Below, piece by piece: positions 3,138 to 41,932 of a stretch of DNA of 64,000 nt (within the stretch, counting starts at the first letter, position 1; every line of letters starts with the position of its first letter). The stretch is from an uncultured Acidobacteriota bacterium (GTDB lineage Bacteria; Acidobacteriota; Thermoanaerobaculia; Thermoanaerobaculales; Sulfomarinibacteraceae): contig CAVPHA010000011.1 of assembly GCA_963704125.1 (NCBI GenBank), forward strand, positions 3,801 through 67,800, written 5' to 3'. The position numbers and the translations under genes are program-made. Below the pieces are notes generated by a model. It worked only from the letters and a program-made list of their open reading frames with translations, had not been told where the DNA came from and did not search any database.

Positions 3138-4679
3138 TTGCGGTTTTCCGAAGTGCTCGCCGGGGTCTTGCGCCCCGGTCCGTGCCTTGACTGTCGAACT
3201 CGACCTGGTCACGCTGGGGTGACCCGTCCACGCTGCAGCAGACCTTCAGCGCCGCTGTGGCACCCGACTGCGCAACCCCGTTACCGGGCCCGGAATCCCC
3301 GCGCCACACCCCTGTACCGCCTCGTCGAGGCGCACTTCGACGAGGTCAAGGGGCTGTGGGTGGAGCGCTTCGAGCGGCGGTGCGGTTTCTGGCGGAGCTT
3401 CATCGACGAGCAGGTGCTGCGCTACCTGGACTGCGGTCTGTTCGAAAACGGGTTTGCGCGGATCCGGTGTCCCGAGTGCGCTGAGGGGTACCTGCTCGCG
3501 TTCTCCTGCAAGACGCGGGAGCTGTGCCCGTCGTGCGCGGCGAAGCGCTCGGCGGCGACGGCGGCGCTTCTGGCCGAGGACGTGCTCGAAGAGGTCGGTC
3601 ACGCCCAGTGGGTCTTTGTCATCCCCAAGATGCTCCGGCCGTACTTCCTGCACCACTGGGAGTTGCTCGGCGGGCTCGCCCGGGCGGCGTGGGAGGCGGT
3701 GCTGGAGTTGATGCGGGCGGCGGACGGCGAGGAGGGGATGCGGCCGGGGATGGTCGCCGTCGTCCAGACCGCCGGCGACCTGGCGAACTTGCACCCGCAC
3801 GTGCACGCGCTGGTGTCGCGCGGAGGTTGGACGCTGGACGGGAAGTGGATTCCGATCGCCTTCGTGGACGAGGCCTCGGCCGAGCTGCTGTTTCGCCACA
3901 AGGTCATCCGGCTGCTGCAGGTCGTGGGGCTGCTCGCGGAGGAGCGGACGGAGCTGCTGCTGTCTTGGCGGCACACGGGCTTTTCAGTGCACAACCGGGT
4001 GCGGGTGGAGCCCGAGGATCAGCCGGCGGTGGAGCGCCGGGCGCGTTACATCATGCGGCCGCCGATCAGTCTCGAACGGATGGAGTGGGACGGGGTGGGG
4101 GAGGAGTGCTATCGGAGGAAGCGGGGGTATGAGAGTGCACGGTTGGGAGAGCGCGAGGTGGAGGCCTTCGACCCGGAAGAGTTTCTCGCCAGGGTGATCA
4201 TGCACATCCCCGCGCCGCGGCGGCACCTGGTGCGGTACTACGGATGGTACTCCAACGTTTCGCGGGGCAGTTGGCGGAAGGCGGGCCAGGAGCATGACAG
4301 GGCTGTGGACGCGGACGCCAGTGCGCCCTCTCGCGCCGCCCGGGCCGAGATCCGAGACGCCCGCGCCCTCAGGCGAAGCTGGGCCCAGCTGATCAAGCGG
4401 ATCTACGAGGTCGATCCGCTGGTGTGCCCCTCGTGCGGCATAGACGAGAACGACGGGCTTCTCGCCAGGTGGCGCAGCGCGAAACGAATGTCTGTCAGCA
4501 ATCCAGCATGGTCATTCTTCTCTGCTACTCGCCTCGAAGCACCGTCATCGGGTCAAGCCTTGCGGCCCTGCGCGCAGGCAGATAACTCGCCAGCAGACCC
4601 ACTACAGCCAGCGCCAGCACGGCCAAGACATAGGTTGGGAGGTCGGTGGCCGCCACCCCGTGGATCTGGGTGGAGATGA
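3138..4679 (+). mobile_element. IS91-family (Y2 HUH, rolling-circle) transposase gene, 3'-truncated relic; the family-like part is about 3219-4439
   Basis: N-terminal zinc-binding block RYLDCGLFENGFARIRCPECAEGYLLAFSCKTRELCPSCAAKR. Core blocks VQTAGDLANLHPHVHALVSRGGW and HLVRYYGWYSN. The family-like sequence stops right after IKRIYEVDPLVCPSCG (4439). The remaining 79 codons are unrelated and overlap the convergent permease gene. A possible GTG start lies at 3219. Confidence 0.8.
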
Positions 4680-6978: not shown

Positions 6979-9393
6979 CTATTCGGTGCGAAGCACGGTC
7001 ATGGGATCGACCCGGGCAGCCCGTCGCGCCGGAAGCCAGGTTGCAAGGGCGGCAATGCTGAATACGAGGAAGGCGGTGGCGGAAAACGTCAGGGGGTCAT
7101 GGGTGGCGACGCCGTACAGGCGGCTCTCCAGGAGTCGCATCAACACTTGGGCGACGGCAACCCCGAGCGACAGTCCCGCAGCGGTCGGGACCAACCCCTG
7201 TTTCATGACGAGCCCCACCACTTTGTGGGAGGTGCCTCCGAAAGCCATGCGAATGGCGATCTCGTGGACCCGTCGACCCACCGAGTAACTGACGACGCTG
7301 AAGACGCCGACGCCTGCGAGCGCGAGCCCGGCGGCGGCAAAGAGGGCCAGGAGTTCGGTCACGACGGTGGTCCTGGCCAAAGATCGATTGACCACCTCGG
7401 TCATCGTCTGGACGTTGAAGACCGGCAATTCCGGGTCGAGCCTTTGTATGGCTTCCCTGATGGGGTTTGCAAGAGGGCCGGCGGAGGTCGTGCGGGAACG
7501 GACAACAAAGGTCGCCCATTCGAATCCGTTCTGTGCCACCGGCACGTACATCTCCGGTCCGGCGTCGTCGGCAAGGTCGATGTGGCGGGTATTTCGCACC
7601 CCACCGACAATGGTCTCCCAGTCGGCCTCCGGTTCGGCGGGGTCCCAACCGATGGTTCGGCGACCGACAGGGCTGCCGTGCCGAACCAGCTGGCGAACGA
7701 AGGCCTCGTTGACCACGACAACGGCCGGTGATTCTGAGGTGTCGGATTCGTCGACAAACCGTCCGACCACCAGGTGGAGCCCCGCCGCCTTCAGATAGCC
7801 GGGGCTGACGAACCGGAGCTCCACGAGAGGCCGTTGCGCGTCCGGTCCCGGTGCAGGGGCCCCTTTCACATAGGATCGCGTCGAGATTCGACGCCCGAAC
7901 AGGGGTAGCGGGTAGACCGTCCCCGCCGCCTCGACTTCGGGAATCGAGTCGATCTCTTCGACCGCACGGCGGATGAACTCGACCAGCGTGGCCTCTTCCG
8001 CATAGCGCTCGTCCGTGAGCGACACTTCCGCGGTCAACACCCTGTCGCTTTCGAAGACGGGATCAACGTTCAGGAGATTGAGGAAAGTCCGTGAGAGGAG
8101 CACCGCCCCGGCGAGCAGCACCACCGAAAGCGCGATCTCCGCAACCACCATGGCCGTGCCGACCGAAGAAGAACCACCGGCCACACTCCGATCCGCCTCG
8201 CGAAGCTGAACCATGATGCGGCCCTCCCGCGAGCGAAGGGCGGGCACGATACCGGAGAGAAGACCGACCGTCCCCGACACCAGGACCGCGACCCCGAGGA
8301 TTCCGGCGTCGAATCCCAGACCGTCGGTGCGGGGGATGAGCTCCGTGAAACGCAGTGCCATCATCCTCGTGCCCCAGTGGGCGATCACGAGGCCGACCGC
8401 ACATCCGCCGAGAGCCAGCATCACGCTCTCGGTCATCACCAGCCGAATCAAATGTCCTCTGCCGGCGCCGAGTGCGTGGCGCACCGCCAGCTCGCGTTGT
8501 CGAGCCGATGTTCGCACCGAAAGGAGGATCGTCACGTTTGCAGCTGCGATGAGCAGCACGCAGAGCACCGCGGTCAGGAGCACCACGAGTGAGGGTCTGA
8601 CGCCGCCGACGATGGTGTCCTTGAGGGAGGAGAGGACAACACTTCGGTCCGCGTTGGTGTCTGGGTATTCTTGCTGCATCCAGCCGGCGATGGTTTCGAG
8701 ATCGCTGCGTGCGTCGCCCAGGCGCACGTTCGGGAGCATGCGACCGACCGGAACCACCCAACCGTGGCCCCGATCCTCCGCCTCGGGATCGATGGCGATG
8801 GGAAGCCAGAGCTCGGTGTCGTTCGGAAAGGAGAAGCCCCAGGGCATCACGCCGACAATCGTGTGGGGGCGCCCGTTCGCCACGAGGACGTCGCCGAGGA
8901 CATCCGGCCGAGCGCCGAAGCTACGTTGCCAGAGGCTGTGGGAGATGACCGCAACGGGATCGCGGCCGGGCTCGTCTTCCTCGACCCCGAACGACCTCCC
9001 GACTTGAGGCGAGACCCCCATGACGGTGAAGAATGGCGCCGAAACGAGGGCGCCAGACACCCGTTCCGGTGCCCGCCCGCCGGTCAGGTTGAGGCTCTCG
9101 CGAAAGGTCGCGGCCATGGCCTCGAAGCTCCGGTTCCGTTCGGCGTATTCGAGGTAGTCGAGCGCGGACATGGGGTACCCGGCGGTCCCGCGTTCCGGTT
9201 GGTTCATTCTGATCTCGACCAGGCGATCAGCGTCGGGGTACGGAAGAGGCTCGATCAGGACCGCGTCGACGATCGACCACACCGCCACCGACATACCGAT
9301 CCCGAGACCCAGCGTGAGGACGGCGAGGAGTGTGAAACCCGGGGTACGGGCAAGCGAGCGGGATGCGAACCGAAGTTCCTTGATCAGGGCCAA
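6979..9393 (-). CDS. ADOP-type duplicated FtsX/MacB-like ABC permease (804 aa), paralogue of 4525-6969
   Basis: TTG start with GGAG upstream. N-terminus ALIKELRFASRSLARTPGFTLLAVLTLGLGIGMSVAVWSIVDAVLIEPLPYPDADRLVEI and C-terminus WLPARRAARVDPMTVLRTE. Its stop is 10 nt upstream of the next permease start, so they form one operon. Confidence 0.9.
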   Translation of the reverse strand: MALIKELRFASRSLARTPGFTLLAVLTLGLGIGMSVAVWSIVDAVLIEPLPYPDADRLVEIRMNQPERGTAGYPMSALDYLEYAERNRSFEAMAATFRESLNLTGGRAPERVSGALVSAPFFTVMGVSPQVGRSFGVEEDEPGRDPVAVISHSLWQRSFGARPDVLGDVLVANGRPHTIVGVMPWGFSFPNDTELWLPIAIDPEAEDRGHGWVVPVGRMLPNVRLGDARSDLETIAGWMQQEYPDTNADRSVVLSSLKDTIVGGVRPSLVVLLTAVLCVLLIAAANVTILLSVRTSARQRELAVRHALGAGRGHLIRLVMTESVMLALGGCAVGLVIAHWGTRMMALRFTELIPRTDGLGFDAGILGVAVLVSGTVGLLSGIVPALRSREGRIMVQLREADRSVAGGSSSVGTAMVVAEIALSVVLLAGAVLLSRTFLNLLNVDPVFESDRVLTAEVSLTDERYAEEATLVEFIRRAVEEIDSIPEVEAAGTVYPLPLFGRRISTRSYVKGAPAPGPDAQRPLVELRFVSPGYLKAAGLHLVVGRFVDESDTSESPAVVVVNEAFVRQLVRHGSPVGRRTIGWDPAEPEADWETIVGGVRNTRHIDLADDAGPEMYVPVAQNGFEWATFVVRSRTTSAGPLANPIREAIQRLDPELPVFNVQTMTEVVNRSLARTTVVTELLALFAAAGLALAGVGVFSVVSYSVGRRVHEIAIRMAFGGTSHKVVGLVMKQGLVPTAAGLSLGVAVAQVLMRLLESRLYGVATHDPLTFSATAFLVFSIAALATWLPARRAARVDPMTVLRTE

Positions 9394-13479: not shown

Positions 13480-13924
13480 CTACTCGGTGGCCCGTCCGGA
13501 CCCGGTGCCTTCGGCTCTGGTCCCGCGATCGATAATCATGACCTCGGCCTCGCCGCAGACGGGCTCGCCGCCAACGGTCACGGCGACGAGTCGGAAGGTG
13601 TTGTAATCGTTCAGGATCAACCCATCGATCGTCTTGATCTCGTCCATCAGGAACTTGGCCACGAAGTAGCCGCGGTTGTCCGCCTTCCATGAGCTGATGG
13701 CGACGCCGGCCAGATAGACGGTATAGACGTCCATATCAGAGTAGAGAATATCGGTGTGAACGGTGACGACGGTCCCGTCGCTCTGGAGGTTAAGAGTCTC
13801 CGGTGCGATCCGGATGACGTTGTCACAGGCGAAGCCGATGGTCGGCATGATCATCAACGCCATCGTGAGCGCGGCTGCCACGATGTCGTGCCGGCGATAG
13901 AAGTCGTGCGTTCTTCGTGGTCAT
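13480..13924 (-). CDS. small lipoprotein, paralogue A (N-terminal signal region needs a 1-nt frame correction)
   Basis: Shares long identical runs with 20774-21217: CDN.IRIAPETLNL.SDGTVVTVHTD, GVAISSWKAD, FVAKFLMDEIK, IDGLILNDYN, GEPVCGE. The ATG at 13924 with a GGAGGG RBS is out of frame by one nt with the body, which otherwise opens with GTG at 13881. Confidence 0.65.
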
Positions 13925-14043
13925 GGGTGCCCTCCAAGGTCCTGGTTGCGGCCGATGTCGACCGGGTTGACGTGTCCGACGGCGCGGTGGCAGTTATTTT
14001 CCGCATGGCCTCCGAGATGACCGCGGGTGCCGATCCGAGCAAC

Positions 14044-14060
14044 AGCACGACTCATGCCAA
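14044..14060 (-). promoter_or_regulatory. sigma54-type -24/-12 element upstream of lipoprotein paralogue A
   Basis: The minus strand reads TTGGCATGAGTCGTGCT (TGGCAT-N5-GTGCT, with consensus GG..GC spacing). It is conserved at the same relative position upstream of paralogue B (21318-21334). Confidence 0.5.
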
Positions 14061-14261
14061 TCCGGGCGACGTACGTCGATCATGATTGCTGAAAGAGGAC
14101 TTACAGGAAACGCGCGGCTGTCGCGGTGGCGAACGACTGAGTCGTATCGCCCCGCAAGGTGTGGCTATTCGACGGTCTCTGCTCGCGAGAACCTCCCGGT
14201 TGAGCCTCGTGCAGAGTCCAAGGATCGGACACCGAGGTCTCCCGATCCTGGTCACCGCCAG

Positions 14262-17877: not shown

Positions 17878-20436
17878 GTGGTCGTGTCATCATCACGAGT
17901 ATCTTCAACCGGTCTAGGGCGATGTTCGATGGTGTGGCCGAGTGCGGTGGCCGCAGCCACGTTTGCCTGCATTGCCTTCGGCGCCGGAGCTCAGGGCTCG
18001 GAGACCACGAGCGAGGGTCCACCCGCGACGAAGACCGCGGTCGGGTCCGAAATGCCGCTGTTCATTCCGGCGGTCGCTCACGTTTCCGGTGCGGCGGGAA
18101 CAAACTGGCGAAGCGATGTCGAGATTTACAACCTTGGGCCCGGTCAGGCCTTTATCGATGTCGCGGTTCTGGAGAAGGACCAACCCAACCCGTCGCCCAC
18201 CACGCGGGCATTCGTCATCAGCCCAGGCATGTCGTACCGGTACCGGGACACGCTGTACAGGATGTTTGGCGAATCCGGCTCCGCCGCGCTGCGGATCGAC
18301 GCCGCGGATGACGCTCTGGTCGTGACCAGCCGGACCTTCAACGAAACGGACTCGGGGACTTACGGCCAGTTCATCGGGGCCCTCGCCGAGAGCCGCGCGA
18401 TTCACACTGGCGAGCAGGGTCGGATCGTGCAGCTGTCGCAGCACGGCTCGTCCGACGCCGGGTACCGGACCAACGTCGGGTTCCTGAACTGCTCGGACCG
18501 CGAGATCTCTGTGGCGGTGGATCTCTTCCGGGGATCCGGCGATCAGTTGGGGACCAGGCTCTACACCCTCGGACCCGCCATGTTCAAGCAGATCGACAGG
18601 ATCTTCACGACGGTGACCGGCGATGACGTCGAGGACGGTTTCGCGGTGGTCTCGACTTCCACCGCAGGAGGAGCGTTCTTCGCCTACGGATCCGTGGTGG
18701 ATAACCGAACCGGTGACCCGGTTTATCTTCCGGCGGCCATCGTCGCCTCGGAGCCCGTTTTCATCCCGGCGACGGCGCACGTGTCCGGAGCGGTGGGAAC
18801 CGACTGGCGCACCGACCTCGAGCTGCACAACTCCGGGAGCGTGGACGCGCAGTTCGAGGTGTCGATGCTCGAGACCGGCCAGGACAACTCGACGCCCGTT
18901 TCCTCGATTGAGCACGTGAGTGCCGGTGCCGGCGTCCGCCTCGACGACGTTCTGCACTCGACCTTTGGTTTCGATGGCACGGCGGCGCTTCGAATCACGC
19001 CAATGGCAGGGGCACACGGATTGGTTACCAGCCGCACCTACAACCAGACTCCGGGTGGAACCTACGGTCAGTTCGTGGGGGCGGTTTCCGCGTCGGACGC
19101 CATCGCGTACAGCGAGCAGGGACTCATCGTTGGGCTCACCCACAACCGGGCCGCCGCAAGCGGCTATCGCACCAACCTGGGCTATCTCAACTGCACGGGC
19201 TCGGAAGCAGTTGTTAGGATCGACCTGTACCGATCATGCGGAGTCCTGCTCGGGACGATCGAGGACACCCTCGGGCCGTACATGCACCGGCAGCAGAACA
19301 GGATCTTTCAACAGGTGACGAACGACGACGTGGCGGACGGCTTCGCCGTTGTCGCCGGCACTACGCCGGGATCGAGGCTGATAGCCTATGCATCGGTCGT
19401 CGACAACGCAACCGGCGATCCGATTTACGTTCCGGCAACCACGATCGTGGCCCGATCGTCGGATCCGCTGATGGACCCGCGCGCGACGATGCACCTCCTG
19501 TTTCGATCGCTGGAGGTCGTCGCTGCCGATCTCGACGTCGAAGACATGATCACTATGCTGCAGATGTTCGGCCTGCAGGCCGCGCTCAACCAGTTGGCGG
19601 CGTTCTATCCGGACATCGTGTCGCTGGGTCAGCACTCGTTCACCCTGGACTACGGCAGCGAAACCAGGCTTCACGACGGAAACCTGGTGAGTGGGCGGGT
19701 GGAGGCAGATTTCGCCGACATCGTCATCAACTCCACGACCATCTCCGGGCAACTCACCTTCACGTTCGACGAGCTTCAATGGAACCACCAGGCGCCACCG
19801 GTCGATACGATCGTCGCGACGGTGGACCTGGCGGTCGATCCACAGGGACACGTGACCGGAACCACCTCGTTCTCCGGAACCGGATCGGTCCCCGTCAAGT
19901 CGGATCCGGTCACGCTGGGGGGCGAAGCGCTCTGGGACACTTTGCTGTGCGACCGCTTCCCGGTGGGAGGAACGATCACGCTCGAGGTCGGGGACGAGCT
20001 CTTCACCTTCACCTTCACTCCGGTTTGCGACGGGACCTTCAGCTACCTGGGGCCGGGCGACGTCGATCTGTCCGGCTACCAAAGGGTAACCGTCCGGGTT
20101 CTCAATCTCGGGCTCCGGCTGCGCTCCGAGAGCCCGGCCTGCAGCGACATCGGGCCGTACACCGAGAGCTTCATCTGGAACGCCTTCAACGGCTCGTGGG
20201 AGGGTTCGACCTATCACGACGCCTGGCAGGAAGATTTTGGGGGTGTTGTGGTCAGCGTCGATCTCGTGGTCGCGGCGCGCCCTGCGGCCGGAACGGCCGG
20301 CTTCACCGCGTGGCAGCAGACCGTCGACTCCCAGGACCCGAACCACGCCATCACGACCACCCTGACGATCACCGGCCACAACCTGCCGCTGGTGTTCACG
20401 GGGGGCGGTCTACGAGAGCCTGCTGCCGGGGGCTGA
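17878..20436 (+). CDS. large exported protein (about 850 aa) with two tandem island repeat domains and a unique C-terminal half
   Basis: GGGAGG RBS with a GTG start at 17878 or 17884 and a signal-like N-terminus. Repeat 1 (about 18052-18748): FIPAVAHVSGAAGTNWRSDVEIYN…GTYGQFIGA…GYRTNVGFLN…FFAYGSVVDNRTGDPVYLPA. Repeat 2 (about 18754-19455): FIPATAHVSGAVGTDWRTDLELHN…GTYGQFVGA…GYRTNLGYLN…LIAYASVVDNATGDPIYVPA. Confidence 0.8.
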   Translation: MVVSSSRVSSTGLGRCSMVWPSAVAAATFACIAFGAGAQGSETTSEGPPATKTAVGSEMPLFIPAVAHVSGAAGTNWRSDVEIYNLGPGQAFIDVAVLEKDQPNPSPTTRAFVISPGMSYRYRDTLYRMFGESGSAALRIDAADDALVVTSRTFNETDSGTYGQFIGALAESRAIHTGEQGRIVQLSQHGSSDAGYRTNVGFLNCSDREISVAVDLFRGSGDQLGTRLYTLGPAMFKQIDRIFTTVTGDDVEDGFAVVSTSTAGGAFFAYGSVVDNRTGDPVYLPAAIVASEPVFIPATAHVSGAVGTDWRTDLELHNSGSVDAQFEVSMLETGQDNSTPVSSIEHVSAGAGVRLDDVLHSTFGFDGTAALRITPMAGAHGLVTSRTYNQTPGGTYGQFVGAVSASDAIAYSEQGLIVGLTHNRAAASGYRTNLGYLNCTGSEAVVRIDLYRSCGVLLGTIEDTLGPYMHRQQNRIFQQVTNDDVADGFAVVAGTTPGSRLIAYASVVDNATGDPIYVPATTIVARSSDPLMDPRATMHLLFRSLEVVAADLDVEDMITMLQMFGLQAALNQLAAFYPDIVSLGQHSFTLDYGSETRLHDGNLVSGRVEADFADIVINSTTISGQLTFTFDELQWNHQAPPVDTIVATVDLAVDPQGHVTGTTSFSGTGSVPVKSDPVTLGGEALWDTLLCDRFPVGGTITLEVGDELFTFTFTPVCDGTFSYLGPGDVDLSGYQRVTVRVLNLGLRLRSESPACSDIGPYTESFIWNAFNGSWEGSTYHDAWQEDFGGVVVSVDLVVAARPAAGTAGFTAWQQTVDSQDPNHAITTTLTITGHNLPLVFTGGGLREPAAGG

Positions 20437-26458: not shown

Positions 26459-26562
26459 TGTCATTCTGAGCACCGCCACGCCGTGGAGCAGCGCCTACTC
26501 ATGCTATGACAAAGCCCGCCAATACCTGTCATTCTGAGCGAGCGTAGCGAGTCGAAGAATCC
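26459..26562. repeat. repeat family B: two copies of the (C)TGTCATTCTGAGC unit
   Basis: CTGTCATTCTGAGCACCGCC (26459-) and CTGTCATTCTGAGCGAGCGTAGCGAGTCGAAGAATC (26527-). A third copy GGTCATTCTGAGCGGGCGGAGCGAGC lies at 33822-33847. Confidence 0.6.
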
Positions 26563-26658
26563 CCCAAAGCTCAGAGCGACGATGAGGAAAGCAGCGTGCG
26601 TCCGACCCGATGGGGAGCTCCGACTCCGCAGCCTCGGAGGCTGCTCTGCTCAGGGTGA

Positions 26659-26732
26659 CGTGCTTTGCGTTCTTTGCATTTCAATCATGCGATGGTGCGA
26701 TGCTTCGCGAACTTGGCGCCTTTGCGGTGAAA
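26659..26732. repeat. repeat family A copy (plus orientation)
   Basis: …TGCGATGGTGCGATGCTTCGCGAACTTGGCGCCTTTGCGGTGAAA is nearly identical to the 32439-32480 copy (GCGATGGTGCGATGCTTTGCGTACTTGCGCCCTTGCGGTGAAA). Confidence 0.75.
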
Positions 26733-32568: not shown

Positions 32569-33817
32569 GTGACGATCGATCGTGACGCAACGAGCTTCGC
32601 GACCGGATTCGAACCGCCTTCCCGGCGCTGGCCGGCGACACCGTCTTTCTCGAGAACGCCGGCGGGTCCCAGGTGCCCGCCGTCGGTGGCCGACGCGCAT
32701 CCGCGACTACATGGTCTCGAGCTATGTCCAGCTCGGCGCCGGCTACCCGCTGTCGCAGCGGGCCACGGCCATGGTCGACGAGGCGCACGATTTCGTGCGG
32801 CTGCTCTTCAACGGCACCGATGGCGAGGTCATCCTCGGCCCGTCGACCTCGGCGCTGCTGCAGATGCTGGCCACCAGCTACTCGAAGGTCCTGATCACCG
32901 GGTGACGAGGTCGTCGTCGCTCAGATCGGTCACGAGGCCAATGTCGGTCCGTGGAAGAAGCTCGCCGAGCACGGGATCGAGCTGAGGTGGTGGAAGATGG
33001 ATCCGACGGATTGCTCCTCGCCGCATCGAGGATCTCGAGGAGCTCCTGAGCGACCGAACGGCGCTGGTCGCTTTCCCGCACGTGTCGAATCTGCTCGGTG
33101 AGATCCTCGATGTCCCGGCGATCACCGAGACTCGCCCATCGGGCCGGCGCCGGGTGGTGGTGGACGGGGTCGCCTACGCCCCGCACCGGGCGATGGATGT
33201 CGCTGCGTGGGACGTCGATTTCTACGCCTACTCGACCTACAAGGTCTACGGACCGCACATGGCGGCCCTGTGGGCGAGCCGGGACGCGCTGGCCGAACTC
33301 CAGGGCCCGAACCACTTCTTCATTCCGGACGACGAGGTGCCCTACAAGTTCGAGCTCGGCGGTGTCAGCCACGAGGGTTGCGCCGGGATCCTCGGTCTGC
33401 GCGACTACCTCGCGATGCTCGCCGGGGTGGGGGAGCCCGAGCGCCCTCGATCGGGCGGCGGTGGAGAGGGCGTTCGAGCTCATGACCGCGTGCGAGCTGC
33501 CGCTCCAGGAGCGGTTGGTGGACTATCTGCGGTCGCGGTCGGATGTCCGGATCATCGGGCCCGGCCACGCCGGCCCGTCACGGGTCGGGACCATCAGTTT
33601 CGTCCACGAGACCAAGACCTCGCGCGAGATCACCGAGGTGGTCGACCGATCGGGAATCGCCATCCGCCACGGCCACATGTACGCCTACCATCTGTGCGAG
33701 GCCCTCGGGATGGATCCCGACGACGGCGTCGTGCGGGTCAGCCTGGTCCACTACAACACGCCGGAGGAGATCGAGCGGCTGATCGAGGTTCTCGACCGAG
33801 CGCTGGGGACCACCTGA
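32569..33817 (+). pseudogene. class-V aminotransferase / cysteine-desulfurase-like PLP enzyme, at least 6 frameshifts
   Basis: Collinear blocks in alternating frames: ELRDRIRTAFPALAGDTVFLENAGGSQVPAV, IRDYMVSSYVQLGAGYPLS…EVILGPSTSALLQMLA, DEVVVAQIGHEANVGPWKKLAEHGIELRWW, LVAFPHVSNLLGEILDV…VDGVAYAPH…DFYAYSTYKVYGPH (PLP-Lys context) and …VVRVSLVHYNTPEEIERLIEVL. Confidence 0.8.
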
Positions 33818-33905
33818 GGATGGTCATTCTGAGCGGGCGGAGCGAGCTCGGCCAACCCCCGCGAAGCTGCCCGGAGCGTGACAGGGTGAGAACCGGCGAC
33901 CTGTC

Positions 33906-36622
<2,717 letters not shown>

Positions 36623-36808
36623 GCGTACCTCCCACCCCTCGTTCGACCCTGCGGTTCGGATCGGGGGCTCATCGAACAACTCAGCCAGTCAGTGTCTCGG
36701 CTGTCGATATCTTCAACCTCATTTTTTCGAGATGTATTCTCAATTCATATCCGGAATCGTGTGCTACCTTTCCCCTACGAGCGAGCCTTTCGGCTTTGGA
36801 GGAAATCG

Positions 36809-37170: not shown

Positions 37171-38424
37171 GTGGTGTTTATGGCGATCGTCGAGACCTGG
37201 GGTCGCGTCCGTGACCGATACCGAATTCTGGCATCGGTCGAGCCCGAGCTCAAGCCGGCTTCTGCTTACCTCAACTGGGCCCGAACCAACTGGGAAATGT
37301 GGCGGCGAACCTCGAAGATCGGCGCGCGGCCGCTCAAACTGACCTTTGACCCGATCAGCGTCTGCCAGCTACGATGCCCGCTCTGCCCGACCGGGCGCGG
37401 ACTCCAGGACCGCGGTGCTGGGCACGCGAAGTTTCATATATTTCAGCACCTCATGGACGAGATAGGTGACCAGATCTTCTTTATCGACTTCTACAACTGG
37501 GGCGAACCGTTGCTCAACAAGCACCTCGAGGAGATGATCGAGCTCGCCACCCGCAAGCGGATCATGACCGCGATGAGCACGAACCTCAGCTTGCCGCTGA
37601 CCGACGAGCGCGCCCGCAAGCTGGTCGGCTCCGGTCTCGGCGAGCTCATCTGTTCGCTCGACGGTTCGAGCCAGGAAACCTATGAGACCTACCGGCGGCG
37701 CGGCAACTTCGCGCTGGCGGTGGAGAATCTGCGCCGGATCGTGCGGGCGAAGGCCGAGCTCGGCAGCAGCCGGCCTTCGATCATCTGGCGGATGTACGTT
37801 TTCAAATTCAACGAACACGAGGTCGAGAGCGCCCGCGCGCTCGCCGCCGAGGTCGGGGTTGACCGCTTTGTGCTCGGCTCGCCCTACCTCGAGAACGATC
37901 AGTTCGCGATGACCGAGACCGAGCGCGCCGAGGCCCGGTCCTGGGCGCCGTCTGATCCCGCCAGAAACCGCTACAACATGTCGCACCCGGACTACGTCGA
38001 GCCGGAGGGCAACACAGCCGTGCGCAGTCGTTGCGATTGGCACTACCTTTCGACCGCCATCAACCCAGACGGCGGCGTCGCCCCGTGTTGTGCAGTCTTC
38101 AAGAAAGCCCATGATTTCGGCAGTCTCGAGGAACCGGGAGATCCGTCCGGTGCCGTCGCCTACATGGACGTCGTCAACAACCCGAGTTTCGTCAGCATCC
38201 GCGACCGCTTCGCCGGACGTCGCAGCGAGCCGACAGGCCTCGTCTGCGAGACCTGCCCGACGCCGGATCTCATGTCCTACGGCCGGACCATGAACCGGCA
38301 GGTCGCATTTCTGACCTTGGTCAGCTTCATCGAGATGATCCGCCGCCTCGGACGACCGGGGGCAGCGTCATGGCGGCAGGCCCCGCCGCTGGTGGCCGAT
38401 CCGGACCAGCTGCCGGTGGCCTGA
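37171..38424 (+). CDS. radical SAM enzyme with a Cys-rich SPASM/twitch-like C-terminal extension
   Basis: CxxxCxxC cluster CQLRCPLC (37363-37386), NWGEPLL, and the C-terminal Cys set RCDWHY…GGVAPCCAVF…LVCETCP. The likely start is ATG 37180, preceded by GAAGG. Confidence 0.8.
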   Translation: MVFMAIVETWGRVRDRYRILASVEPELKPASAYLNWARTNWEMWRRTSKIGARPLKLTFDPISVCQLRCPLCPTGRGLQDRGAGHAKFHIFQHLMDEIGDQIFFIDFYNWGEPLLNKHLEEMIELATRKRIMTAMSTNLSLPLTDERARKLVGSGLGELICSLDGSSQETYETYRRRGNFALAVENLRRIVRAKAELGSSRPSIIWRMYVFKFNEHEVESARALAAEVGVDRFVLGSPYLENDQFAMTETERAEARSWAPSDPARNRYNMSHPDYVEPEGNTAVRSRCDWHYLSTAINPDGGVAPCCAVFKKAHDFGSLEEPGDPSGAVAYMDVVNNPSFVSIRDRFAGRRSEPTGLVCETCPTPDLMSYGRTMNRQVAFLTLVSFIEMIRRLGRPGAASWRQAPPLVADPDQLPVA

Positions 38425-38582
38425 CCGGTTCGCGACCGATCCGCCTCACCCACTGGCGGTGCGGGGACCGGATCTGCTGAACCGGTGGAGAGTGGGATGA
38501 CACAGACATTGGCCCGGGAAGCGATCCCCGGGCCACGGTCTGATTGATTGTCTTCGAACCAGGTCGGAGCGGGCCCGACCGG

Positions 38583-39053
38583 TCAGCTGGTGACGAGTTC
38601 CATCCCGCAGGCGCAGTTGCCGGGCTCGGATGCGACGAAGTTGCATGTGCACGAGCCACCGCAGTTGCAGTAGTAGAGACCCTTGCCTTCGAGGTTGACC
38701 TGTTTGACCTCTTTGCCGCAGGTACACTTGGTCGGATCCTCGGAATTGAGTTCACAGGTGCAGTCCCCGCCGCACGAGCACAGCGTGGCCACATTTCCGT
38801 CCATCTTGAGCAGGTGGGCCTGGGCCAGCTCGCTGCCGCAGCCGCAGGTTCCGGGTTCCAGAGCGACGGCTCCGCAATCGCACTCGGGGCCGCAGCTGCA
38901 AACGTAGACAAGATCGTTGCGCGCCTCGACGACGGGCTGCTCTTCGACGACGTCAACCACCACTTCTTCGACCGGGGCTTCGGTCGCAGAGCCGCCGCAA
39001 CCGAGCGCCGCCACCATGGCAAAGATCACCACCGCAAGACTCACGTTCTTCAT
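38583..39053 (-). CDS. exported Cys-rich lipoprotein with three CxCGxxCxC-x9-CxCG repeats (metallothionein-like, putative metal binding)
   Basis: GGAGGG RBS and ATG at 39053. Lipoprotein signal MKNVSLAVVIFAMVAALGC, then an acidic linker. The three repeats are YVCSCGPECDCGAVALEPGTCGCGSEL, TLCSCGGDCTCELNSEDPTKCTCGKEV and YYCNCGGSCTCNFVASEPGNCACGMEL (18 Cys). Confidence 0.7.
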   Translation of the reverse strand: MKNVSLAVVIFAMVAALGCGGSATEAPVEEVVVDVVEEQPVVEARNDLVYVCSCGPECDCGAVALEPGTCGCGSELAQAHLLKMDGNVATLCSCGGDCTCELNSEDPTKCTCGKEVKQVNLEGKGLYYCNCGGSCTCNFVASEPGNCACGMELVTS

Positions 39054-39354
39054 AATTTTCCCTCCATCGGCCTCCCGGACGGTGGCCGCATTGAAGGGGT
39101 GAGAATAACACGCGTAGATTCGACTTGTGGCGCAACGGAGGATAAAGTCGTCAACGGTTTCGAAACCGGCCCTCTCCAATCGGCGAGCCGGGCGTGGTTG
39201 ATTTCGTTATGGGGAGATAGTCAGATGATGGTGGTGAGTTGAGAAGATCGAGCACCGAAGGGAACCTCCCGGCGTTCAGATGAAATCGGCCCATGGTATC
39301 CTCGCCGCGTTGAGCCGGATTCAAACTCATCCGAGCCGTCGACCGCATGGGCCG

Positions 39355-39726: not shown

Positions 39727-39817
39727 GCCGCCCTTTCTGTCGCAAGAAATCTACGCCCGCTCCGCGGGTCGACCAGGCGTGTGGGGACGATGCCGACGCG
39801 CCGAAAGAGGAACGCTC

Positions 39818-41932
39818 ATGATTTTGAATTCCCTTCCAGCGGGGGGGCCGGTGGCTGTCTGGCTTGCCCTGATCCTGTGTCCCTTCGTGGCGGCCCAGGA
39901 GGCCGCCGATCCACCCTCAAACACCGAAAAACCCGTCGTCCACGGCAGCATCGACGTGACAGCCGAGGCGATCGCGATATCGACTGTGACCCTGGTGAAC
40001 CGTGAGGATCTCCAGTCCACCACCCCTTTGGGCGACGGCTCCGAGGTCCTCCGCGATGTCGCCGGAGCCGACCTCGGCCGGATGGGCGGTCACGGTCTCG
40101 AGCCCTTCGTCCGTGGGATGAGCCAGGGTGATCTCACCGTGCTTGTCGACGGGGCCACCGTCCACGGCGGCTGTCCCAACCGCATGGACCCGGCGACGTC
40201 CTACGCGGCCACCGAAACCACCGACAGCGTAATGGTGATCCGTGGGGTCCAGACGGTCCGTTACGGCCCGGGGGCGCCCGGCGGCACGGTGATCTACGAC
40301 CGCGTGGTCCCTGATTTCCACGATTCGACGTGGGAAGCCGATCTCTCCACCGGTGGTACCAATTGGTCGGCGAGGCCCGATTTCACCCTTGATGCCGCCG
40401 TCGGCGGCGGAAGCTGGGGTCTCAGGGTTCTCGGGTCGTACCGCGACACCGACGACTACAACGACGGCAATGGCGAGGAGGTACGTTCAGCTGCCGAGAG
40501 CACGACCGGATCCCTCATGGGCGGCTGGCGGCCGGATGAGGCGACCATGCTCGAGCTGAGCTACGAGCATTCCACCACCATCGACGCGCTCTTCGCGGGT
40601 GCCGGTATGGACTCGCCGGAATCCACCTCCGACATCCTCCGATTTCAGACCGAGCGGGATTCGATCGACGGCAGCCTGGGATGGCGCGTGGATCTCTTCG
40701 CCGACCGTGTCGACCATCTCATGGACAACTACTCTCTGCGGCCGCTGACGGCGCCTTCGGCCATGCGGGTCCCGTCGGACACGTCCACCTGGGGTCTCCG
40801 CGGCCAGCTCGAGTTTGGCCGCGCCCACCCGATGCTCGTCGGTGTGACCGTGGTCTCGGCCAACCTCGATGCCACCCGGTATTCGGGACCGAACCCGGAC
40901 ATGGTCAACATCAAGCAGTCCATCATGTGGGCCGATATCACCAACGATCAGGCCGGCGCCTTTGTCGAAGGCTCCGTCGGGATCGGCAACAGGACGCGGC
41001 TCGTCTACGGCGCCAGGGTGGACTATTTCACCGCCGAGGCGGCCCGCGCCGGCGAGACGACGCTCGGCGGAAACGGCCCCGCGCCGCGGCAGCTGTGGAT
41101 CAGCTACACCGGCGACGGTGACGACTCGTGGTCGAGCACCGATTTCGGTGGGCTTGTCCGGATCGAACACCGCCTCGGAGCATGGCAGCTCTTCGGGGGT
41201 CTGAGTCGCACCGTGAGGGTTGCCGACGCCACCGAAAGGTTTATCGGCGTCAATAGCCCGATGGCCGCCGTGCGATGGGTCGGCAACCCCTCACTGGCGC
41301 CGGCTCGAAACCACCAACTCGATCTCGGCGCCAGCTGGCAGGCTCGATCGTCGACGGTCAACCTCAGCGTCTTCGCCGCCGACATCGACGACTTCATCCT
41401 CCGTGATCGCGCCCACGGCCAGCCCGGGATTCTGCAAGACGACAACGCCACCATCTATCGGAACGTGGCCGCGCAACGCTTTGGTTTCGAGAGCGATGCG
41501 ATGGTCCGGATTTCGGACCCGTTGATGTTCACCGGCGCTCTCGCCTGGGTCTGGGCCGAGAACACCACCGACAGCCGGGCGATCGCCCAGACCCCGCCGC
41601 TGCACGGCAACATCAGCCTTGCCTGGAGCCGGTCACGGTGGTCGGCTGCAGGCCTCATTCGTTTCGCCACAAAACAAACCCGGGTCGATGACGACCCGCT
41701 CACCGGCAGCGGTCAGGATGTCGGTCCGACCCCCGGTTGGGCGGTTTTCGACCTCGAAGGTACCGTCGAGCTCGGGGCCGGGTTCGGGATTCGGGTCGGG
41801 GTCGCCAACGTCTTCGACCGGGCCTATGCCAACCACCTCAACCGAGCCAACCTCTTTGAACCGGTGGAGGTCCAGGTCAACGAGCCGGGCCGGACCTACT
41901 GGCTTCGCGTGAGATGGAACGGCAGCGGCTGA
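39818..41932 (+). CDS. TonB-dependent outer-membrane receptor, OprC/NosA-like copper receptor
   Basis: Signal peptide, plug domain and 22-strand-type barrel length. HGGCPNRMD supplies the CxxxM motif (Cys 40172-40174, Met 40184-40186). DHLMD supplies HxM (His 40715-40717, Met 40721-40723), 181 residues downstream. Confidence 0.8.
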   Translation: MILNSLPAGGPVAVWLALILCPFVAAQEAADPPSNTEKPVVHGSIDVTAEAIAISTVTLVNREDLQSTTPLGDGSEVLRDVAGADLGRMGGHGLEPFVRGMSQGDLTVLVDGATVHGGCPNRMDPATSYAATETTDSVMVIRGVQTVRYGPGAPGGTVIYDRVVPDFHDSTWEADLSTGGTNWSARPDFTLDAAVGGGSWGLRVLGSYRDTDDYNDGNGEEVRSAAESTTGSLMGGWRPDEATMLELSYEHSTTIDALFAGAGMDSPESTSDILRFQTERDSIDGSLGWRVDLFADRVDHLMDNYSLRPLTAPSAMRVPSDTSTWGLRGQLEFGRAHPMLVGVTVVSANLDATRYSGPNPDMVNIKQSIMWADITNDQAGAFVEGSVGIGNRTRLVYGARVDYFTAEAARAGETTLGGNGPAPRQLWISYTGDGDDSWSSTDFGGLVRIEHRLGAWQLFGGLSRTVRVADATERFIGVNSPMAAVRWVGNPSLAPARNHQLDLGASWQARSSTVNLSVFAADIDDFILRDRAHGQPGILQDDNATIYRNVAAQRFGFESDAMVRISDPLMFTGALAWVWAENTTDSRAIAQTPPLHGNISLAWSRSRWSAAGLIRFATKQTRVDDDPLTGSGQDVGPTPGWAVFDLEGTVELGAGFGIRVGVANVFDRAYANHLNRANLFEPVEVQVNEPGRTYWLRVRWNGSG

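Follow-up and report, generated by a model that had tools for sequence, protein, structure and literature searches.

Gene and Encoded Protein

The window analyzed in this work is the whole stretch of 64,000 nucleotides (positions 3,801 to 67,800, forward strand, of contig CAVPHA010000011.1, assembly GCA_963704125.1) from an uncultured Acidobacteriota bacterium of the Sulfomarinibacteraceae. Its minus strand carries a complete gene for a Cys-rich protein of 156 amino acids (aa), which an original prediction made from the sequence had regarded as a possible periplasmic metallothionein-like lipoprotein. Our results suggest that this protein belongs to a family without annotation, in which HMBD (PF19335), a copper-sensing domain for one ion, would have become an exported Cys6 module present in three copies. 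The features of the gene are as follows:

38583..39053, minus strand: complete gene of the 156-aa Cys-rich lipoprotein, stop codon included (open reading frame and translation)
39060..39065, minus strand: Shine-Dalgarno sequence GGAGGG, 6 nt 5' of the ATG (read from the sequence)
38997..39053, minus strand: predicted signal peptide with lipobox, residues 1-19, ...VAALG/C19 (sequence; weak matches to LPAM_1 and lipoprotein models in family members)
38922..38996, minus strand: acidic Ala/Val/Glu/Pro tether, residues 20-44 (predicted disordered, pLDDT ~45-53)
38799..38921, minus strand: unit 1, residues 45-85, R-x-D-x-x-Y-x-CxCGPxCxC-x9-CxCG-x-E-L...H80 (the unit most like HMBD over its whole length)
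38691..38798, minus strand: unit 2, residues 86-121, LCxCxxxCxC-x4-DPTK-CxCG (unit-to-unit hhalign probability 97%)
38586..38690, minus strand: unit 3, residues 122-156, GLYYCNCGGSCTCN-x-VS-x-xPG-x-CxCGMxL (C-terminal knuckle of HMBD kept, including the ligand Met, M151)

The open reading frame (ORF), the lipobox AALGC, the Val/Glu linker, the three Cys strings and the GLYYC string on which the original prediction was based were all present in the sequence. Translation starts at the ATG in 39053-39051 of the minus strand and gives a product with the N-terminal sequence MKNVSLAVVIFAMVAALGC...; a longer reading, a 198-aa ORF from a TTG start, was set aside because homologues share the start Met, and likewise the length, of the 156-aa reading. 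The N-terminus is basic and is followed by a hydrophobic core and the lipobox (MKNVSLAVVIFAMVAALG, then C19). The stretch MK-NVSLAVVIFAMVAALG-C19 thus has what is expected of a bacterial lipoprotein processed by signal peptidase II, i.e., a basic residue at the N-terminus, a hydrophobic core and a lipobox whose Cys lies among roughly the first 35 residues, which we take, from general knowledge, to be a pattern of the PROSITE PS51257 type.

Cys residues occupy positions 19, 52, 54, 58, 60, 70, 72, 92, 94, 98, 100, 110, 112, 129, 131, 135, 137, 147, and 149. The 18 repeat Cys follow the spacing 2,4,2,10,2 (C-x-C-x3-C-x-C-x9-C-x-C) exactly in all three units (CSCGPECDC-x9-CGCG, CSCGGDCTC-x9-CTCG, and CNCGGSCTC-x9-CACG), with a short (E/K)(L/V) segment behind each of them. 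Profiles of the units matched each other at 97-99% probability in hhalign, therefore reflecting a true internal triplication and not chance.

The AlphaFold2 (AF2) model of the protein, computed without metals, reached a pLDDT (predicted local distance difference test) of ~90 over residues 45-156 and a predicted template modeling score (pTM) of 0.64, and was all-beta with hairpins joining the units. Unit 3 modeled as a single unit (pLDDT 82) displayed a strand, a loop, a short strand, a knuckle, and a final strand. Structure prediction, one of the checks suggested at the outset, thus yielded a confident all-beta model, but Foldseek matched the full model to no known fold (best E 0.83).

Family Size, Conservation, and Export

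A search of 5.8 billion proteins gave 112 homologues, all of them labeled hypothetical and none with a Pfam domain; the conservation figures given here rest on a 110-sequence alignment. Twelve of the 18 repeat-Cys columns were invariant and the other six deviated in just 1-4 sequences, the three copies of the spacing being exact in 91 of the 110 homologues. D47 was also invariant, and R45, Y50, H80, D106, N130, N138, and M151 were nearly so (M151 was kept in 109 members). Comparison with the gene of the close relative L097 gave a ratio of nonsynonymous to synonymous substitution rates (dN/dS) of 0.20. The gene is real and under constraint. The closest relative of the gene appears to be broken up over two gene calls, P0036 and P0119.

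The only substitutions at any Cys column were by His (three members) or Met (one member), all at C94, and the members concerned keep their other Cys. Such replacement without loss of a partner Cys therefore suits a metal ligand and speaks against a disulfide at C94. This bears on the explanation that the protein is a structural or adhesive envelope domain devoid of metal, whose 18 Cys would form nine disulfides stabilizing a beta-rich repeat. The even number of Cys in an exported protein, the confident AF2 fold obtained without metals and the lack of a metal-related context at most loci agree with it. However, besides the replacements at C94, the similarity to a knuckle domain that binds metal, the retention of the ligand Met of that domain and the confinement of the family to anaerobic sediment and groundwater lineages argue against it. 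CxC pairs, moreover, have poor disulfide geometry and are typical of metal clusters. We consider a metal-free disulfide domain improbable.

A lipobox was found in 73 of the 110 members and a plain signal peptide in 31, the start being unclear in the remaining six, so that 104 members carry one signal or the other. The family is thus, as predicted from these signals, an envelope family, mostly lipid-anchored, and the export, lipid anchor and metallothionein-like Cys density originally claimed for the protein were supported. The linker between signal and repeats is rich in E (17%), A (21%), and V (14%) across the family, and about 10 members have His/Met/Cys-rich linkers instead (e.g., GIHSHHDGTHRHHGSMADCGCCCNM and HGPMGHGMHHHPGCASCC), a composition typical of periplasmic Cu(I)/Ag(I) binders.

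Homologues come from uncultured bacteria of sediment and groundwater. Among GTDB species representatives, one scan yielded 80 loci, each of them from a metagenome-assembled genome (MAG). These belong to the Acidobacteriota (Thermoanaerobaculia/Sulfomarinibacteraceae and Holophagae), to Desulfobulbales, Desulfuromonadales and other Desulfobacterota, to Thermodesulfovibrionales/Nitrospirota, Rokubacteria/Methylomirabilota and Verrucomicrobiota, and in one case to a Myxococcota MAG. Traces of the window DNA were found only in marine-sediment, wastewater and soil metagenomes. The plasmid collection contained no homologue, and a sigma-54 promoter scan upstream of 88 homologues gave zero strict matches.

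Relation of the Units to HMBD

The sequence of unit 3, GLYYCNCGGSCTCNxVSxxPGxCxCGMxL, recalls the HMBD motif YxCPMHPE...PGxCPxCGMxL. In hhalign, unit 3 matched HMBD repeats at 95% probability over the C-terminal 18 columns, and unit 1 matched them at 65% probability over its full length with exactly one 4-residue gap (YVCSCGPE[CDCG]AVALEPGTC-GCGSEL, the bracket marking the 4-residue insertion); unit 2 gave no hhalign match to HMBD. The unit profile, run with HMMER against 1.84 billion representative proteins, recovered at E<=1e-3 292 clusters (at 50% identity) of small exported proteins with one to four recognizable units. It was also matched at E 4e-12 (profile positions 16-34) by protein P0233, in which Pfam recognizes six canonical PF19335 HMBDs (E 7.8e-87). 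An intermediate form, YACPMGCPELSDKAGKCACGMDM, is present in P0259.

PF19335 (gathering threshold 23.6 bits) gave sub-threshold matches in 8 of the 110 members (best E 0.0027), and several single-unit relatives also matched it weakly. Canonical HMBDs (Y.CPMH...CP.CGM) were found neither in the window nor in any of the family loci. The profile search with one repeat that had been proposed as a check extended the family and connected it with an HMBD protein, but it did not lead to membership at a Pfam threshold. This pattern fits units that are putative remote or derived relatives of HMBD and not members of PF19335.

The solved example of HMBD is the N-terminal metal-binding core of Legionella pneumophila CopA (PDB 8OVL), which consists of a three-stranded sheet, two loops and a rubredoxin knuckle, binds Ag+/Cu+ through three sulfurs (M44, C59, and M61) and is described as preferring Cu(I)/Ag(I) over Zn(II) (PMC11970713). 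The alignment places these three residues opposite C131, C149, and M151 of unit 3, and C94 is the counterpart of M44 in unit 2.

The units have in common with HMBD the layout Y-x-C-x-(M/C)... loop ...(V)S(D)xPGxC(P)xCG(M)xL and the tandem arrangement, which is frequent in HMBD. Like HMBD, they would form a beta domain some 30 residues long with a rubredoxin-type knuckle, and the order of strands predicted for one unit is in qualitative agreement with that published for 8OVL. In contrast, each unit has six Cys, whereas HMBD has three Cys plus Met/His; the units contain a 4-residue insert bearing a CxC, and their knuckle is CxCG instead of CPxCG. The characterized HMBD is a cytosolic regulatory sensor for one ion, whereas the Cys-rich protein is a stand-alone protein of three modules, predicted to be exported and lipid-anchored.

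Known Families, Folds, and Literature

Pfam and NCBIfam scans of the Cys-rich protein and all 110 homologues gave no family above threshold. A PDB sequence-profile search with the protein found nothing, and the literature searched described no periplasmic metallothionein, broader topics yielding general reviews only and PF19335 appearing only in an unrelated use. Neither Pfam, NCBIfam and PDB nor the literature searched contains a description of the family, in keeping with the initial statement that the protein was not recognized as described.

The likeness to SmtA-type metallothioneins that had been put forward was rejected: the SmtA/BmtA model PF02069 had no match among the 110 members at E<=10, and GLYYC was the sole string in common. 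Other metallothionein models remained far below threshold, the gathering threshold of PF02068, PF02067, and PF01439 being reached by no family member. Metallothio_PEC (PF02068) gave sub-threshold matches in 74 of the 110 members (best E 0.03; 12.9 bits for the Cys-rich protein vs. a cut-off of 31.8), which are consistent with a similarity in Cys composition, and Metallothio_5 did so in 15. The MymT model (NF052418) matched 10 members at E>=0.055, with a top score of 19.9 bits, from a single-unit relative, against a cut-off of 80 bits.

Like the metallothioneins SmtA/BmtA, MymT and plant Ec (PF02068), the Cys-rich protein is small and very Cys-dense, with CxC and CxCGxxCxC-like strings, and diverges fast at non-Cys positions (74% identity to the L097 protein vs. 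96% for the product of the neighboring gene). Metallothioneins have multi-ion thiolate clusters, and the Cys-rich protein would have them as well. It differs from them in the scores already given, in its export signal (the metallothioneins compared are cytosolic, without signal peptides) and in its defined beta fold, predicted without metal.

These comparisons bear on the identity of the metal. Instead of Cu(I), the units could hold another thiophilic metal, either in Zn2Cys6/ZnCys4-type sites buffering Zn or Cd (or Ni, Hg) or as structural zinc in a protein of different function, e.g., protein-protein docking in the envelope. The all-Cys CxC/CxxxC spacing recalls plant Ec and other Zn/Cd metallothioneins, as do the sub-threshold Metallothio_PEC matches; zinc ribbons and treble clefts have the same architecture of a knuckle plus a loop; many zinc-ribbon models match the canonical HMBD protein; and a NikR-type regulator lies beside one member. 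On the other hand, the closest characterized homologue binds Cu(I)/Ag(I), described as favored over Zn(II) (PMC11970713), the conserved M151 and the Met/His substitutions favor soft Cu(I), and the recurrent neighbors are copper chaperones, along with a copper receptor, and not Znu, Zur, Czc, or Znt genes. We regard the binding of such another metal, in buffering or structural sites, as unlikely.

Gene Neighborhoods across the Family

The neighborhood survey covered 101 non-redundant loci. A Pfam survey of 189 immediate neighbors returned 86 and 93 families in two batches, none of them dominant. De novo clustering of neighbors brought out histidine kinases and sigma-54 regulators of a generic kind, which lay within 5 kb at 20 of 87 loci, roughly the background frequency, and otherwise only ATP-binding cassette (ABC) ATPases and NosR-unrelated items.

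The only recurrent metal-related neighbor was a cluster composed of NosL, a 110-aa unknown, a MacB/FtsX-type permease, an ABC ATPase and a 336-aa unknown, often accompanied by Sco1/SenC and by a 550-aa periplasmic-binding/cytochrome-like protein. It adjoined the family member or lay within a few kb in 8 of the 101 loci (L018, L029, L035, L041, L045, L070, L077, and L092); NosL and/or the linked ABC genes were thus near members in 8 loci and Sco1 in 5, and NosL was directly downstream on the same strand in L029, L034, L045, and L070. The eight loci span at least four phyla and include Thermoanaerobaculales, Desulfuromonadales, other Desulfobacterota and Verrucomicrobiales. A single-copy cluster would be expected by chance within 8 kb in well under 1% of genomes, a figure that is a rough estimate and not a computed control. 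A frequency of 8% across several phyla against an estimated <1% therefore indicates a real, though minority, association. Both NosL and Sco act as copper chaperones in the periplasm (PMC8457098; PMC7558416). The cluster (e.g., L070, 5195-12160) and its unknowns are without an NCBIfam name, and it may be a copper-handling type VII ABC system.

In L006, a NikR-type regulator gene (RHH_1 plus NikR_C; 8514-8933, minus strand) lies convergent to and directly downstream of P0091, being the only metal-sensing regulator seen beside any member.

The survey also bears on a reading in which the Cys would carry reactive sulfur or selenium (persulfide, polysulfide, or selenide) through the periplasm of sulfur-cycling anaerobes. 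The taxa are mainly sulfur or metal respirers (Sulfomarinibacteraceae, Desulfobulbales, Desulfuromonadales, and Thermodesulfovibrionales) and multihaem cytochromes adjoin a few members, as this reading would have it. No recurrent sulfur or selenium gene was linked in the 101 loci, however; weak ExtH/ExtJ matches spanned signal peptides only, and homology indicates a metal domain. A sulfur or selenium carrier is, in our opinion, very improbable.

Genomic Context in the Window and in Close Relatives

The genes and elements flanking the Cys-rich gene are the following:

37171-38424, plus strand: radical S-adenosylmethionine (SAM)/SPASM gene, convergent with the Cys-rich gene, 160 bp away
38503..38542, no strand assigned: stem-loop between these two convergent genes (16-nt inverted repeat, 88% complementary; terminator-like match)
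39280/39355-39726, plus strand: divergent single-transmembrane (TM) protein with a MCRCGCGNPEGRCCC cluster, upstream of the receptor (no Pfam/NCBIfam match)
39779..41932, plus strand: OprC-type TonB-dependent copper receptor (TIGR01778 451 bits, cut-off 472; 6FOK E 6e-72)

The divergent Cys-cluster membrane protein (Cys-TM protein) and the OprC-like receptor were found as originally described. Copper ligands of OprC are CxxxM and HxM (PMC11836926; PMC8610252), and the CPNRMD and DHLMDN strings of the receptor align with them in 6FOK; the receptor therefore retains its copper ligands and is, judged from this alignment, a genuine OprC homologue. The Cys-TM protein, which carries a MCRCGCGNPEGRCCCTAP cluster, belongs to a tiny family of 12 members and may be an unrecognized partner of OprC-type copper receptors. 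The repeat finder reported no operator-like palindrome in the divergent promoter region.

Weight had been placed on the adjacency to the receptor, and this was not borne out. Searches (tblastn) of 87 family loci with the receptor, the Cys-TM protein and the radical SAM protein gave no match except for a weak one to the receptor in L040. Among 21 later metagenome loci, the Cys-TM gene occurred only in L092 and the radical SAM gene only in the close relatives L097 and L111. Nor was the gene pair conserved in close relatives: L097 (89% nt identity) matched window positions 37393-39111, i.e., the radical SAM and Cys-rich genes, and then diverged, whereas L113 (79-92% nt identity) matched from 39294 on (Cys-TM, receptor, pirin, APH, and acyl-CoA dehydrogenase genes) and had a sigma-54 activator in place of the Cys-rich gene. 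Synteny thus breaks exactly between the Cys-rich gene and the Cys-TM/receptor module. In L114, pirin, Cys-TM and receptor genes were likewise present without the Cys-rich gene, the Cys-TM gene preceding the receptor in both L113 and L114. L092 (76% nt identity) contained the Cys-rich gene and then pirin and the Cys-TM gene at the contig end, the latter about 1.3 kb from the Cys-rich gene. Therefore, the Cys-rich gene abuts the module in two of the four loci with the module or the Cys-TM gene, in two arrangements, and the adjacency is suggestive within the lineage but not conserved.

The enzyme encoded by the radical SAM/SPASM gene was most similar, albeit weakly, to maturases of tungsten-cofactor oxidoreductase and of metalloenzymes (TIGR04317 82 bits, cut-off 380), with identities of 96% in L097 and 84% in L111. 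The stem-loop is probably a terminator separating the two transcription units. Between the window and L097, the Cys-rich gene (window 38586-39053, L097 1509-1982) had a synonymous divergence (dS) of 0.78 with 74% aa identity, as compared to a dS of 0.13 with 96% aa identity for the radical SAM gene (window 37171-38424, L097 2144-3115). Both genes are under purifying selection (omega 0.14-0.20). The difference in dS therefore suggests differing histories of the two genes, and the Cys-rich allele was perhaps replaced through recombination.

The proximity of this gene, and the pairing retained in L097 and L111, would be accounted for if the Cys-rich protein were the precursor of a ribosomally synthesized and post-translationally modified peptide, its Cys being cross-linked by the radical SAM enzyme in the manner of sactipeptides or ranthipeptides. 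The genes are convergent with a stem-loop between them, however, a Sec/lipoprotein signal stands in place of a leader peptide, and the sixfold difference in dS suggests separate histories. Since the radical SAM gene is absent from the other family loci examined, this lack of co-occurrence largely refutes the explanation, which we consider extremely improbable.

Two further observations concern other parts of the window. A Ser/Thr protein kinase (35747-36679, minus strand) is followed by PD40/TolB-like beta-propeller pieces in differing frames (35176-35610, 34665-35153, and 33751-34503), and the region 33751-36679 (minus strand) looks like a single frameshifted kinase-propeller gene, due to either a pseudogene or assembly indels. 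An intergenic repeat element of ~135 nt (CTGTCATTCTGAGCGAGCGTAGCGAGTCGAAGAATCC...) is present in one copy (26526-26662) beside a penicillin-amidase gene; L113 contains five tandem and two dispersed copies of this element (19621-20323 and 13829-14239).

Proposed Function

We propose that the Cys-rich protein binds Cu(I) through thiolates at several sites and serves in the envelope as a buffer, store, or hand-off protein, and we assign to this reading a probability of about 0.55. The pre-protein would be exported via Sec, lipidated at C19 and held by a flexible acidic tether of ~25 residues. Its folded part would consist of three homologous beta-rich modules of ~35 residues each, in which the ligand Met of the HMBD "CPMH" string would be replaced by Cys, the 4-residue insert would bring an extra CxC, and the knuckle CxCG would be followed in unit 3 by the ligand Met. 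With six thiolates per module, complemented by M151 and H80, each module would hold a small metal-thiolate cluster of thiophilic ions and not one ion. Six Cys classically form either a Cu4S6-type Cu(I) cluster or a Zn2Cys6-type site. In the periplasm, the protein would be a buffer or store of high capacity for a thiophilic metal, most likely Cu(I). Metal entering the envelope, here possibly via the adjacent OprC-type receptor, would pass to the chaperones NosL and Sco1, and the thiols would remain reduced in anoxic, sulfidic habitats.

Points in favor of Cu(I) are the specificity of the homologue, the Met that is retained, the substitutions by His/Met, the linkers containing these residues, and the neighbors with a role in copper trafficking. 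A role in buffering, storage or hand-off is likelier than pure detoxification because the neighbors are uptake and chaperone genes and not efflux genes. The gene, its export signal, the homology and conservation of the repeats, the remote similarity to HMBD and the gene neighborhoods are results of the analysis, whereas metal binding, metal identity, stoichiometry and direction of transfer are inferred. The envelope soft-metal role advanced in the original prediction is plausible, and it gains backing from the remote HMBD homology of the units, the His/Met substitutions, the linkers and the NosL/Sco1 neighbors.

Exported copper stores have a precedent in Csp1, a Tat-exported, Cys-lined four-helix bundle that stores Cu(I) and is the proposed supplier of periplasmic and membrane cuproenzymes (PMC7558416). 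Csp1 is, as an exported high-capacity Cu(I) store, the nearest functional analogue of the proposed role, but it is an all-alpha tetramer exported by Tat, whereas the Cys-rich protein is predicted to be composed of all-beta repeats and to follow the Sec/lipoprotein route. Neither a twin-arginine motif in the signal peptide nor a sequence match relates the protein to Csp. With NosL and Sco1/SenC it would share the envelope location, often with a lipid anchor, and the handling of Cu(I) proposed here (PMC8457098; PMC7558416). It has no homology to them, however, both being single-site chaperones, with the NosL fold and the thioredoxin fold (Sco1), respectively.

Several results weigh against a copper role in the envelope. 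Concerning the domain, the Cys-rich protein itself gave no PF19335 match even at E<=10, the similarity to HMBD is strong only in the C-terminal half of the unit, and Foldseek returned zero matches for the single-unit model, so that it does not confirm the structural likeness to HMBD. As for the genomic context, immediate neighbors are heterogeneous and ~90% of the loci are without a metal-related one; neither copper efflux or detoxification genes (CopA, Cus, CueO) nor a metal-sensing regulator were consistently linked in the surveyed loci, and the OprC adjacency is a lineage-specific junction. With regard to chemistry, an all-Cys site cannot tell Cu(I) from Zn(II), Cd(II), Hg(II), or Ni(II), and the Cys could be oxidized in a periplasm with an active Dsb system. 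Finally, the search for transcript evidence found no RNA run with the window DNA.

A more far-reaching version of the copper reading, which we put forward tentatively and consider possible but doubtful, is that the protein could be the founding member of an unrecognized class of Sec-exported, lipid-anchored metallothionein-type proteins of anaerobic bacteria. Each Cys6 module would bear a tetranuclear Cu(I)-thiolate cluster (~12 Cu per protein), and the protein would constitute a periplasmic reservoir feeding NosL/Sco-type chaperones in copper-poor sulfidic habitats, as a beta-fold, Sec-dependent counterpart of Csp1.

Significance

Should no metal be bound, the family would still be an unannotated, confidently folded beta-repeat domain deserving a family entry. 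A 4-residue insertion and the replacement of a Met by Cys would have changed a one-ion sensor domain (HMBD) into a module with several thiolates, which would make the conversion of HMBD to Cys6 a tractable case for the evolution and design of metal sites, and the compact 35-residue module could interest metal-capture engineering.

The holding and routing of copper and other soft metals in the Gram-negative periplasm is only partly understood, the known players being the single-site chaperones CusF, CopC, NosL, Sco, and PCuAC and, in methanotrophs, the helical Csp1 stores. If the proposal holds, this widespread family would add a new type of envelope metal buffer, present in Acidobacteriota, Desulfobacterota, Nitrospirota, Methylomirabilota, and Verrucomicrobiota, and would be the first such buffer from the uncultured anaerobes prevailing in sediments, in which copper is scarce because of sulfide.

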